Shown in pieces: positions 51,440 through 55,303 of a DNA stretch of 64,000 nucleotides (position 1 is the stretch's first letter; each line of letters starts with the position of its first letter). The DNA comes from Escherichia phage JN02. Position numbers and translations under genes: made by a program. The stretch lies in the sequence record MT782071.1; one strand, given 5' to 3'. Under the pieces are notes generated by a model. The model did no database searches. It saw only the letters and a list, made by a program, of their open reading frames with translations, and was not told the origin of the DNA.

Positions 51440-54400
51440 ATGGCTACATTAAAACAGATACAATTTAAAAGAAGCAAAGTGGCAGGAGTTAATCCTACTG
51501 CAGCACAATTAGCCGAAGGCGAATTAGCGATAAACTTAAAAGATCGAACTCTTTTTACTAAAGATGACCTCGGTAATATTATTAGCCTAGGCTTTGCTAA
51601 GGGCGGGGATATTAACGGTAATGTAACTCAAAATGGTGATTATTTACAAAACGGCACATATAATCTTAATGGAACCCAGTTTGTTTATGCAGGAAAGTAT
51701 ATTGAATTCTTGCCAAAAACTGCTGGAAATGGCGCTTGGGCTAACCAACATCAGAATAAAGCCCCTATCTTTACAGATTTGAGTTCAACTACTTCAACTT
51801 CTGAATACCACCCTTTGATTAAGCAACGTTATAAAGATGGTACTTTTTCAGTAGGTACATTAGTAAGCGAAGGCTCATTTAGAGTCCATTATATTGATTC
51901 TACAGCTCCAGACAATTCTAAACACTGGGTCTTTAACCGTAATGGTAATTTTATTGTAGATTCTGGTAGTATTGAGGTCCGCACAGGTAATATTTCTGCG
52001 TCCGGAAATATTAACTCCGCTAATGGTATAGTTTCTGCTCCACAAGTTAATACGAAAACCATTGTTTTGGACACAAAAGCATTCGGACAATATGATTCGC
52101 AATCATTAGTTCAATATGTTTATCCTGGAACAGGTGAAGAAAATGGTATAAACTATCTTCGTAAAGTTCGAGCTAAATCGGGCGGAACTATTTACCATGA
52201 AATCGCTTCAGCTCAAACTGGTAAGAATGATGAAATTTCTTGGTGGACCGGAAATACACTTACTACTAAATTAATGGGTCTTCGTAATGATGGCGCAATG
52301 GTATTACGTCGTTCACTTGCTATTGGCACAATTACCACTGATGAAAATACTAACAACTATGGCTCTCCTACTCCAATGGGAGAAAGATATATTGCTTTGG
52401 GCGATGCTGCAACTGGTTTAAAATATATTAAGCAAGGCGTTTATGATTTAGTAGGTAATTGGAATTCTGTTGCTTCTATTACTCCTGATAGTTTCCGTAG
52501 TACTCGTAAAGCATTATTTGGACGCTCAGAAGACCAAGGCGGAACCTGGACAATGCCTGGAACCAACGCCGCGCTTTTATCGGTTCAAACCCAGGCTGAT
52601 ACAAACAATGCAGGTGATGGTCAAACCCACATTGGATATAATTCTGGCGGTAAATTTTCTCATTATTTCCGTGGTACAGGTCAGATGAATATCAATACCC
52701 AACAAGGTATGGAACTTAACCCAGGTATTCTTAAACTGGTAACCGGCGCAAATAATATACAGTTTTATGCCGACGGAACTATTTCTTCCATTCAACCTAT
52801 TAAATTAGATAACGAGATATTTTTAACTAAATCTGATAATAGTGCAGGTCTTAAATTCGGAGCCCCTAGCCAAGTTGATGGCACAAGGGTTATCCAGTGG
52901 AATGGCGGCACTCGCGCTGGTCAGAATAAGAGTTATGTAACTGTAAAGGCTTGGGGTAATTCATTTAACGCATCCGGCGATCGTACTCGTGAAACAGTTT
53001 TTGAAGTAGCTGACGGGCAGGGATATTATTTTTATTCTCAGCGCGTAGCTCCAACCGGTTCAGAAACTGTGGGACCTGTTGTAACCCAGTTCAATGGACA
53101 AGTTAATGCTAGAGGGAGCATTATCACCGATGGAAGTCTTAGAGTTAATGGATTAAGTGCATTATCCGGACAAGTTACTATGGATAACGGGCTTGTTTTA
53201 TCCGGTGGTGGTTCTATTACCGGCCAAGTTAAAATCGGTAATACCGTAGATGCTTTCCGTATTTACAATGCTGAATATGGAGCTATTTTCCGTCGTTCTG
53301 AAGCGTCTTTGCATATTATACCTACACTTAAAGATGCAGGTGAAAGTGGTGGAATAAGTAATCTCCGTCCACTAAGTATTAGTCTTAATAATGGTATGGT
53401 TCAAATGCGCCATTCTGTTACGTTAGGTGATGATGGTGCTGGCGGTAATATGGTGACCGTTGATAATGATAATAAACTTGTTGTTATAACTAGCCATAGT
53501 CGCATTTCTCCTAATTACCGTATGCAGTTAGGTCAGTCGGCATACATTGATGCAGAATGTACTGATACTGCACGACCTGCTGGAGCCGGTTCTTTTGCTT
53601 CACAAAATAATGAAAACGTTCGTGCTCCGTTCTATATGAATATTGATAGAACAGATACAAGCACTTATGTTCCTATTGTGAAACAAAGATACGTTCAAAA
53701 TAATAGTTGCTATTCTATTGGTACTTTAATTAATGGTGGTAACTTTAGAGTTCATTATCACGAAGGTGGTGACGGCGTTTCTACTGGTGCTGTTATAAAG
53801 GATCTTGGATGGGAATTTAATAAAAACGGTGATTTTTATTCTCCTGGTAAATTAGGCGCTGGTAATGTTCGTATTGGTACTGATGGTAATATCACTGGCG
53901 GTTCTGGTAATTTTGCTAACTTGAATACCACAATAAATAACCTTAAGACGGATATTGTCTCAAGTTATCCAATTGGTGCTCCGATTCCTTGGCCTACTGA
54001 TACACCTCCTGAAGGTTACGCCATAATGGAAGGTCAAACATTTGATGCTGAGTTGTATCCTAAGTTAGCTGCTGTGTATCCTTCCGGCTCTCTGCCTGAT
54101 ATGCGTGGTCAAACTATCAAGGGTAAACCATCTGGGCGTGCTGTATTAAGTACAGAAGCAGACGGTGTTAAGTCACATAGCCATAGTGCAAGTGCATCAA
54201 GCACAGATTTGGGTACTAAAAATACGTCAAGTTTTGATTATGGTAGCAAAACGACTTCAAGCTTTGATTATGGTACTAAGACCAGTAATACCACTGGCAA
54301 CCATAACCATACAGTAAGTGGTAATACTAGTTCCGCTGGTGCTCACCAACACGCGCGTTCAGGCCCTCAGATACAAGCCGGCATACCCAATAACATATTC

Positions 54401-54721
54401 TATGACGGATATAATAGTGTAGGTGCAAACGCCAACGCTAAATTCACTGGATCCGTGAATGGTGCTACTGCAGGGTCGAATATAGCCAAAACTTCTTCAG
54501 ATGGTGCTCATACTCATAGTTGGTCAGGTACTACAAGTACCACAGGTAACCATGCTCATACGGTAGGTATTGGTGCTCATTCTCATACTGTGGGTATTGG
54601 TGCTCATTCTCATACTGTTGCAATTGGTTCCCATGGACATACAATAACTGTAAATGCCACAGGAAATACAGAAAACACTGTTAAAAACGTTGCTTTTAAC
54701 TATATCGTTCGTTTAGCATAA
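51440..54721 (+). CDS. 37: long tail fibre distal subunit gp37 (receptor-binding fibre)
   Basis: 1093 aa; conserved gp37 core; C-terminal HxH repeats; distinct tip segment. Confidence 0.95.
54566..54646 (+). repeat. 27-bp tandem coding repeat in the gene 37 C-terminus
   Basis: GGTATTGGTGCTCATTCTCATACTGTG twice, then a degenerate third unit; encodes GIGAHSHTV. Confidence 0.7.
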
Positions 54722-54727
54722 GGAGAA

Positions 54728-54746
54728 GGGACTTCTGTCCCTTTTT
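54728..54746 (+). terminator. terminator-like hairpin after gene 37
   Basis: GGGAC-UUCU-GUCCC followed by T5, directly before gene 38 ATG. Confidence 0.65.
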
Positions 54747-54751
54747 ATAAT

Positions 54752-55303
54752 ATGAAACTCTATCACTATTATTTTGACACTAAAGAATTTTACAAAGAAG
54801 AAAATTATAAACCATTAAAAGGCGTAGGATTTCCGGCTCATTCAACACCAAAAAAACCTTTAGACCCTAAAGAAGGCTATGCTGTTATATTTGACGAACG
54901 CGAGCAAGAATGGGTATATGTTGAAGACCATCGTGGAAAAACAGTATGGACTTATGATAAGCAAAAAATTGTTATTGACACTCCAGGTGCTCTTCAAAAT
55001 GTTACTACAGAAGAACCCGGTGAATTTGACATTTGGACCGGCGACGGGTGGAAGGAAGATGAAGCATATAAACGCGTAGTTCAACGTGATAAGAAAATTC
55101 ATGAACTCTATAAATTATTCAGTGTTTTAAGTTCTCTTATTGACGCAGAGGTTGCTAATAGAGAAGAAAAACGAAAATTTAAAGAGCTCAAAAAATTCTT
55201 TGCCCTTTTAGAAAAACACGAACATCTTGGCGGTGAATTCCCTAAATTCCCTGACCTTGAAAAGAAATCTATTGTCAAAGCGATTATAAATATCTTTAAG
55301 TAA
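54752..55303 (+). CDS. 38: gp38 tail fibre assembly chaperone (T4 type)
   Basis: 183 aa; matches T4 gp38 N-terminus (MKLYHYYFDTKEFYKEENYKP...). Confidence 0.9.
   Translation: MKLYHYYFDTKEFYKEENYKPLKGVGFPAHSTPKKPLDPKEGYAVIFDEREQEWVYVEDHRGKTVWTYDKQKIVIDTPGALQNVTTEEPGEFDIWTGDGWKEDEAYKRVVQRDKKIHELYKLFSVLSSLIDAEVANREEKRKFKELKKFFALLEKHEHLGGEFPKFPDLEKKSIVKAIINIFK

Follow-up and report, generated by a model that had tools for sequence, protein, structure and literature searches.

The window analysed here, one strand of 64,000 nucleotides from Escherichia phage JN02 (MT782071.1), carries the tail-fibre operon in the order 34-35-36-37-38-t (ORFs of 1291, 375, 221, 1093, 183 and 219 aa), an order likewise annotated in T4, LH01, HX01 and Bas40. 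We focused on gene 37, on the short interval that follows it and on gene 38 (Table 1). Homologues of gene 37 in HX01, LH01, PCM001 and Bas40 are annotated as long tail fibre distal subunit or tail collar domain protein. The JN02 product shares 68% identity with T4 gp37 where the two align and is longer than its T4 counterpart (1093 versus 1026 aa), with 37 of the 67 additional residues located in the C-terminal tip (+10, +15, +3 and +9 in the alignment). By sliding-window identity, its shaft is mosaic relative to each of HX01, PCM001, Bas40, Bas42 and Bas44. The last 293 aa match PDB 2XGF, the solved T4 gp37 tip (T4 residues 785–1026; Bartual et al. 2010), with E = 2.6e-88 over query residues 16–293, which bears out the proposal of a preliminary description, made from the sequence, that this region is the receptor-binding tip of gp37. 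The C-terminal strand is almost unchanged in 30 homologues, and its T4 counterpart (gp37 1010–1026) has been assigned to the D10 collar domain (PMC6957217). An AlphaFold2 monomer of the last 230 aa, built on a 30-sequence alignment, was too poor to use (mean pLDDT 55.7, pTM 0.20), which probably results from modelling a single chain of what would be an intertwined trimer.

Table 1 Features of gene 37, gene 38 and the interval between them in the JN02 window.
Feature	Position	Strand	Basis or remark
Gene 37, distal long-tail-fibre subunit with C-terminal adhesin	51440-54721	+	ORF, 1093 aa
Collar domain, aa 846-893	53975-54118	+	Pfam PF07484 Collar, E = 4.8e-11; aligns to 2XGF collar
His box a1, KSHSHSA, first of ascending arm	54176-54184	+	Aligns with T4 H883/H885
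Three His-free 10-residue units, ascending arm, [31 protein letters not shown]	54191-54280	+	
His box a2, GNHNHTV	54302-54310	+	Motif layout
His box a3, GAHQHA, left border of tip	54344-54352	+	14 residues from a2
Head (tip) segment, receptor-recognising region, aa 972-1023	54353-54508	+	Between His boxes a3 and d1
Exchanged TuIb-type cassette, 137 nt (probable)	54365-54501	+	Identity breaks versus relatives
Descending arm, five His boxes d1-d5	54509-54640	+	Spacing 14, 9, 9, 9 residues
His box d1, GAHTHSW	54509-54517	+	Descending arm
His box d2, GNHAHTV	54551-54559	+	Descending arm
27-bp repeat, three units, [27 protein letters not shown]	54566-54646	+	
His boxes d3 and d4, GAHSHTV twice	54578-54586; 54605-54613	+	Descending arm
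His box d5, GSHGHTI	54632-54640	+	Descending arm
Conserved C-terminal strand, [24 protein letters not shown]	54647-54718	+	Almost unchanged in 30 homologues
Hairpin GGGAC-TTCT-GTCCC then T run, between genes 37 and 38	54728-54746	+	RNA fold
Gene 38, T4-type tail-fibre assembly chaperone, 183 aa	54752-55303	+	Pfam PF02413 Caudo_TAP, E = 2.7e-5

The product of gene 38 shares 119 of 183 residues with T4 gp38, and in relatives the gene carries the annotation chaperonin or assembly protein. An adhesin of the T2/T6 gp38 type (~260 aa, with glycine-rich motifs and hypervariable segments), which caps gp37, was ruled out since the downstream gene encodes this 183-aa T4-type chaperone. In sequence, His boxes, gp38 and operon order, JN02 agrees with the T4/TuIa/TuIb class of fibres with a built-in adhesin. 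The RNA fold of positions 54719–54752, between the two genes, reached −14.5 kcal/mol with a 10-pair stem at 54723–54746 (z = −3.4), a value equalled by none of 200 shuffles. A consensus terminator scan flagged no terminator between genes 37 and 38, and in some relatives a terminator is annotated at this place.

The JN02 tip contains eight HxH boxes, three before the head and five after it, and a count of at least eight in the last 230 aa was reached in none of 100,000 residue shuffles. The motif layout and this shuffle test confirm the HxH motifs that had been noticed near the gp37 C-terminus; all seven boxes quoted in the preliminary description are present, and the eighth (KSHSHSA) lies upstream and was not in its list. 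By comparison, the T4 tip region has seven boxes, with four on the descending arm as against five in JN02, and its ascending arm has two His-free 10-residue units as against three. Repeats are visible in the DNA of both arms. On the ascending arm, SFDYGSK (54230–54250) and SFDYGTK (54260–54280) lie in adjacent 10-aa units (54221–54250 and 54251–54280) that are identical at 23 of 30 nt, and the TDLGTK and FDYGTK units are also related (repeat D5, 78% over 23 nt, 60 nt apart). On the descending arm, the first two copies of the 27-bp repeat (54566–54592 and 54593–54619) agree at 26 of 27 nt, with no higher value among the 16 sequences of the panel, and the third (54620–54646) has diverged; TRF recovered the array in another phase (54551–54618, 2.5 copies, 92% matches, score 115). 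Both the span previously given for this tandem repeat and the duplicated SFDYG(S/T)K motif, with its two units, were thus correctly described. A further direct repeat, D2 (54323–54345 versus 54488–54510, 78% identical), has its copies on either side of the head, and a single inverted repeat, 15 nt long at 87%, is present in the region.

Between the flanking His boxes lie 52 residues in JN02 and 34 in T4, whose head is shorter and unrelated-looking. The variable segment, ARSGPQ...KTSSDG, occupies aa 972–1022 (nt 54353–54505); the preliminary description had rightly placed such a segment between His boxes, but at about aa 930–990, numbers that are ~40 too low. Its impression that the segment differs from the T4 tip also holds, as the blocks that can be aligned are 42–54% identical and gapped. 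Alignment of the gp37 C-terminus with T4 and relatives found the tip unlike T4 and near-identical to the TuIb type, whose gene 37 receptor-recognising region was published in 1990 (GenBank X55191; Montag, Hashemolhosseini & Henning 1990, J Mol Biol 216:327). The JN02 tip is therefore of a known and ordinary type, and TuIb-type tips are present in at least 88 phage records in a database search. TuIb shares the whole architecture (three His boxes out and five back, two SFDYG and two GIGAHxHTV units), aligns with the last 600 nt of JN02 without an indel, differs by two residues in the head and likewise has a T4-type gene 38 downstream. Its flanks, however, are only 81–88% identical to those of JN02, and it is filed under Tequatrovirus whereas the JN02 backbone is Mosigvirus-like. 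The head of Bas40 differs from that of JN02 by one residue of 51, and three BASEL phages, HX01, O157 typing phages and AV110 have the same head within 1–3 residues. At position 1005, JN02 has S as TuIb does, whereas most panel relatives, including Bas40 and HX01, have T. A blastn search of positions 54300–54660 against the 64-kb window for any further copy of the tip, whether template or alternative, returned none, the matches being the query itself and internal His-box repeats. Programmed tip diversification (DGR, invertible or alternative cassettes) was rejected on the grounds that the window has no second copy of the tip.

At the head, identity to the relatives changes. Across the 137 nt of the cassette, HX01 (99.3%), Bas40 and Bas44 (98.5% each) and TuIb (96.4%) are close to JN02, with a range of 97.8–99.3% for HX01, PCM001, Bas40, Bas42 and Bas44, and TuIa (57.7%), LH01 (54.0%) and ST0 (53.3%) are distant. 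The flanks show a different relationship (left flank/cassette/right flank: Bas40, a Tequatrovirus, 81.1%/98.5%/87.7%; TuIb 81.1%/96.4%/87.7%; the Mosigvirus phages LH01 93.8%/54.0%/92.7% and ST0 97.1%/53.3%/86.4%), and HX01 and PCM001 share the Mosigvirus flanks with JN02 at 94–99%. Gene 38 is 96–100% identical to Mosigvirus relatives and 57–87% identical to Bas40, so the tip moved without its chaperone. Among 13 TuIb-type sequences, synonymous divergence was 0.114 in the tip and 0.37–0.49 in the arms, which argues that the cassette is younger than its flanks, and pN/pS was 0.63 in the tip versus 0.07–0.12 in the two arms. These values, together with the swapping of the cassette between genera, agree with the earlier expectation that specificity would change at this site. 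It is extremely improbable that the near-identity across genera instead stems from strong purifying selection, or from convergence, on a segment that is old and was inherited vertically with no horizontal exchange: a receptor may constrain the surfaces that bind it, but protein-level purifying selection does not lower synonymous divergence, which in the tip is three to four times below that in the arms. Moreover, pN/pS is higher in the tip rather than lower, and LH01 and ST0, of the same genus, have an unrelated-looking head (53–54%) within near-identical flanks.

As read from these sequence comparisons, the head is an exchanged cassette bounded by His boxes, in keeping with the model of Tétart and Krisch, who are said to have described (J Mol Biol 1996, 1998) how adhesins are swapped when conserved motifs recombine and how duplication extends the host range. 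As in that model, the variable head of JN02 is bounded by His-box sequences that recur as direct repeats, and the breakpoints lie in the boxes; in contrast to it, the JN02 head is not duplicated, and the duplicated units sit in the needle shaft and are fixed across the TuI-type group. A full-text literature search for "His boxes" together with tail fibre and adhesin found none. The cassette, at ~54365–54501, would have entered the Mosigvirus lineage via homologous recombination within the conserved His-box sequences that flank it, with the lineage keeping its own fibre shaft and gp38 chaperone while the head was exchanged. Recombination exactly at the His boxes may be suspected, with the density of differences shifting at ~54364–54371 and 54500–54508 and the junctions not placeable to the base.

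The predicted receptor of JN02 is the E. coli porin OmpC, possibly with LPS. This prediction is made by analogy, because OmpC is used by both Bas40 (FelixPlatter), whose ompC dependence has been complemented genetically (PMC8594841), and TuIb, which is listed as OmpC-dependent in an entry that reads 'OmpC/LamB', so that its assignment is not perfectly clean (PMC9659904). OmpC use has also been predicted for the Mosigvirus AV110 (PMC10844046), whose tip is 95.8% identical to that of JN02 in nucleotides. In T4, the residues needed to bind LPS and OmpC map to the His box H929/H931 and to the stretch directly after it (PMC6957217), and this box aligns with a3 of JN02. We consider it unlikely that a few retargeting residue changes have given this TuIb-like tip a different primary receptor, such as OmpF, another porin or LPS alone. 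Such changes have parallels, since TuIa, whose scaffold is the same and whose head is homologous (57.7% cassette nt identity), is listed as an OmpF user (PMC9659904), and since in T4 one substitution in the tip can alter how LPS and OmpC binding are balanced, with single alanine changes uncoupling OmpC from LPS binding (PMC6957217); the pN/pS of the tip is also high. Nevertheless, JN02 is separated from Bas40, for which the genetic evidence exists, by a single head residue, and this residue, S1005, is TuIb's own, while the other phages named above have kept the same head within 1–3 residues.

Family matches comprise 1486 proteins at E ≤ 1e-5 and 890 cluster representatives at E ≤ 0.001. The 1486 proteins are mostly short prophage or partial proteins rather than full-length T-even gp37, and the protein matches served only for the family-wide survey of modules, with close relatives being compared through a BLAST panel of phage records. 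In Enterobacteriaceae, the side tail fibre tips of lambdoid and Mu-like prophages share the C-terminal ~215-residue module, with its collar, His boxes and NYIVRLA end, whereas their N-terminal shafts and heads differ and their needles have 1 to 6 modules. Such tips are covered by the name 'T4- and lambda-based RBP family' (PMC9659904). The repeat numbers on the two needle arms were found to co-vary exactly, in 240 of 240 homologues. By homology to the T4 tip, three chains would leave the collar, make the distal head and return, giving a six-stranded needle bound together by metal ions, each ion presumably held by three His-x-His boxes, one per chain. The T4 needle has seven iron atoms along it (PMC6957217). 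As read from the sequence register, with the co-variation of the arms and the eight HxH boxes, eight metal sites are predicted in JN02 against seven in T4, and the extra module pair would consist of a 10-residue SFDYG unit outward and a 9-residue GIGAHxHTV unit back. We tentatively put forward, as a generalisation that may well not hold, that the needle of this family is built of paired modules (a 10-residue His-free unit out with a 9-residue GxHxH unit back, and a 14-residue His unit out with a 14-residue His unit back) and changes length only when both arms gain or lose units in concert. JN02 and all TuI-type T-even tips would then have undergone one coordinated gain relative to T4, leading to the eighth metal site and a needle longer by one module.

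The repeats had also been taken as a sign of ongoing repeat-driven variation, for which we found no change in copy number. The 15 TuIa-, TuIb- and ST0-type relatives aligned with JN02 over 600 nt without an indel, and each of these sequences, JN02 included, has exactly two SFDYG and two GIGAHxHxV units. The 40 best database matches have the same span with a single exception, O157 typing phage 13, which was rejected as a length variant (+118 nt) because of N runs in its assembly. In the first GIGAHxHTV copy, JN02 has the Ser codon TCT found in copy 2, whereas all 15 relatives have ACN (Thr), which suggests a recent gene conversion between the 27-bp copies; a conversion of two bases is probable from this pattern and would be the sole repeat-driven sign. 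That the 27-bp repeat and the duplicated SFDYG unit form an unstable array, with a copy number that is changing now and drives host-range variation in the lineage, is very unlikely in our view. It would account for the 26-of-27 agreement of two copies and for the Ser codon, copy number does range from 1 to 6 units across the wider family, and Tétart et al. (J Mol Biol, 1996) reportedly obtained, by experimental selection, host-range-widening duplications in this same stretch of T4 gene 37. Against it stand the constant lengths among the relatives and the best matches, and a change on one arm would violate the matching of the arms, given which single slippage events should in most cases be lethal to fibre folding. 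The repeats, moreover, sit in the needle shaft, outside the receptor-contacting head. The needle repeats are fixed structural modules and not a currently unstable array.

Taken as a whole, we hold with considerable confidence that the product of this region is the receptor-binding needle at the C-terminus of a T4-type gp37, with an extra module pair and an exchanged TuIb-type head, for which OmpC is the predicted receptor. The homology, the arrangement of motifs, the mosaicism, the pattern of substitutions and the identity to tips of phages whose receptors are known are observed directly; trimer formation, metal binding, the number of eight sites, OmpC binding and the mechanism of recombination are inferred. 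Very little of this is new for the JN02 tip region, which is already known. Its value lies in placing the JN02 long tail fibre in a known specificity class, TuIb-like with OmpC as the predicted receptor, which serves annotation and the choice of phages for cocktails, and in offering a clean textbook case in which a 137-nt adhesin cassette appears to have moved between Tequatrovirus and Mosigvirus while shaft and chaperone stayed lineage-specific. The arm-matching rule, if true and not previously stated, would permit a simple prediction, from sequence alone, of how long each of thousands of fibre tips is and how much metal it contains, and would provide a design rule for engineered fibres. It would also call for an explanation of how two separate duplications come to be fixed jointly.

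Gene 37 is flanked by ORFs of 1291, 375 and 221 aa upstream and 183 and 219 aa downstream, an order (34-35-36-37-38-t) that matches the tail-fibre operon annotated in T4 and other T-even relatives. Mosigvirus phages, among them LH01, ATK47, JK36 and PNJ-6, share 94-96% identity with the window over 24 kb. The preliminary description gave gp37 1093 aa against about 1026 in T4, and both the ORF and the T4 annotation agree with this; overall identity between the proteins is 68%, and the C-terminal tip accounts for 37 of the 67 additional residues. The solved receptor-binding tip of T4 gp37 (PDB 2XGF) matches the last 293 residues (E = 2.6e-88). The ORF directly downstream is a Caudo_TAP assembly protein (Pfam), identical to T4 gp38 at 119 of 183 residues, which by sequence places the phage in the T4/TuIa/TuIb class (gp37 itself the adhesin, gp38 a chaperone) and not in the T2/T6 class. 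Between the two genes lies a GC-rich hairpin with the sequence GGGAC-TTCT-GTCCC and with TTTTT after it (54728-54746; RNA fold of 54719-54752: -14.5 kcal/mol, z = -3.4), which was not flagged by a consensus terminator scan; a terminator is annotated there in some relatives. Elsewhere in gene 37, the shaft segment 52746-52925 is 92-94% identical to T4 and only 49-66% to Mosigvirus LH01, HX01 and PCM001, a second mosaic patch separate from the tip, and the N-terminal part at 51620-52070 has a close match only in PCM001 (97-100%), with LH01, HX01, Bas40 and T4 dropping to 21-88%.

Features of gene 37 and its tip region
Feature	Position	Strand	Remark
Gene 37 ORF	51440-54721	+	1093 codons; region of interest is the 3' end
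Collar domain	aa 846-893 of gp37		Pfam
KSHSHSA box	54176-54184		eighth His-x-His box
SFDYG(S/T)K motifs	54230-54250 and 54260-54280		two motifs
Head (variable segment)	54353-54505		aa 972-1022, ARSGPQ...KTSSDG
Cassette	54365-54501		TuIb-type part of the head
27-bp array, copies 1 and 2	54566-54592, 54593-54619		26 of 27 nt agree
27-bp array, copy 3	54620-54646		diverged

All motifs quoted in the preliminary description were found in the gp37 C-terminus, together with KSHSHSA, which it had not listed; the head, which it had put at about aa 930-990, lies further downstream. Eight HxH motifs in 230 residues were attained in none of 100,000 shuffles. The corresponding region of T4 gp37 has seven HxH boxes and the T4 needle holds seven iron atoms along its length (PMC6957217), which implies one ion per box per trimer, so that the eight boxes of the window would predict eight metal sites. 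An AlphaFold2 monomer model of the tip (pLDDT 55.7, pTM 0.20) was too poor to use.

HxH box spacings were tabulated for fibre-tip homologues, of which 240 of 268 (120 from one protein search and 148 cluster representatives from another) were analysable. First spacings of 22, 32, 42, 52 and 72 residues on the outgoing arm, which runs from collar to head, go with one, two, three, four and six nine-residue spacings on the returning arm, respectively. Counted as units, there are always as many 10-residue His-free units on the way out as 9-residue GxHxH spacings on the way back (1, 2, 3, 4 or 6). Spacings of 14 residues (0, 1 or 2) are likewise always equal in count on both arms, giving nine architecture combinations and no mismatch; the two apparent exceptions are a protein with a His-to-Tyr substitution (P0099) and one without the second outgoing box (P0240). 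T4 has (32,14)/(14,9,9) where the window, at 54176-54640, has (42,14)/(14,9,9,9). By these matched spacings, the SFDYG and GIGAHxHTV duplications form a single structural module pair, each supplying one half; this accounts for their being fixed, and slippage confined to one array should not be tolerated. Among the homologues, four E. coli proteins (P0012, P0033, P0101 and P0109, the last carried by 480 contigs) have an N-terminal terminase large-subunit segment (PF05876) joined directly to the fibre-tip module, which has the look of a fusion by deletion within a cryptic prophage that is widespread.

The preliminary description placed the 27-bp array correctly, and TRF also reports it, though in a different phase. 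The ongoing repeat-driven variation proposed from this array and the duplicated SFDYG(S/T)K motif fails for copy number, as exactly two SFDYG and two GIGAHxHxV units are present in the window and in 15 of 15 TuIa/TuIb/ST0-type relatives. Spans also match across the 40 closest database matches, the sole outlier being an assembly gap: gene 37 of KP869111.1 (E. coli O157 typing phage 13) has no annotation and contains two N runs (206 N in 1839 bases fetched), and the apparent difference in length arises from the assembly. Copy 1 of the window reads CAT TCT CAT (HSH) at 54578-54586, like copy 2, whereas each of the 15 relatives carries ACN (HTH) there; both base changes in the TCT codon make it equal to the neighbouring copy. 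Some relatives, too, have variants of their own that occur in both copies, and HSH also occupies both copies in the homologue P0001. This is a small sign of concerted evolution, and the change in copy 1 suggests a very short gene conversion. The repeats are structural modules that stay fixed, not a source from which variation is actively generated.

Identity was compared separately for the left flank, the cassette and the right flank across 16 phages, whose 600-nt alignment contains no gaps. Tequatrovirus Bas40 and TuIb are 98.5% and 96.4% identical to the window in the cassette versus 81.1% on the left and 87.7% on the right for both, while Mosigvirus LH01 (left 93.8%, cassette 54.0%, right 92.7%) and ST0 (97.1%, 53.3% and 86.4%) show the reverse. 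The same pattern was found in a sliding-window comparison from genes 36 to t, and gene 38 remains Mosigvirus-like (96-100% to LH01 and HX01, 57-87% to Bas40). Difference density shifts at about 54364-54371 and 54500-54508, both within conserved boxes (one of 11 residues, the other KTSxDGAHTH), and the boxes around the cassette recur as a direct repeat (54323-54345 versus 54488-54510, 78% identical). The same exchange mechanism was reportedly proposed by Tétart, Desplats and Krisch in 1998. Synonymous divergence across 13 TuIb-type sequences comes to 0.114 for the tip versus 0.37-0.49 for the arms, and pN/pS to 0.63 versus 0.07-0.12. By these measures the cassette is younger and less constrained than its surroundings, consistent with a recent horizontal spread and with selection on the receptor-binding surface. 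No second copy of the tip was found within the 64-kb window, which thus gives no hint of a retroelement-type or invertible diversification system. In a 366-aa metagenomic fibre protein (P0006), a TuIa/ST0-kind head (ARSGPRMAAS...KTSNDG) sits on a T4-length needle, (32,14)/(15,9,9), which argues that head type and needle length assort independently.

A 191-nt query spanning the variable segment matched 108 phage records, 88 at full length, with 85-98% identity. They include X55191, the gene 37 sequence of phage TuIb from 1990, as well as BASEL phages Bas40, Bas42 and Bas44, Mosigvirus HX01, O157 typing phages, APCEc01, Yersinia phage phiD1 and AV110. In amino-acid sequence, the head (51 residues) is one residue off Bas40 and HX01 and two off TuIb. 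The main interpretation of the preliminary description, a receptor-binding tip that varies between His boxes and is other than that of T4, is upheld, and on these comparisons the tip type of this phage is already known, being assignable to the long-known TuIb type, which numerous sequenced phages carry with 96-99% identity. Bas40 (FelixPlatter) depends on ompC by genetic complementation (PMC8594841), TuIb is recorded as OmpC-dependent (PMC9659904), and OmpC is the predicted receptor of Mosigvirus AV110 (PMC10844046). Given the near-identical heads of these OmpC-linked phages, OmpC is the best-supported predicted receptor of the window phage, perhaps with LPS as a partner, as in T4.
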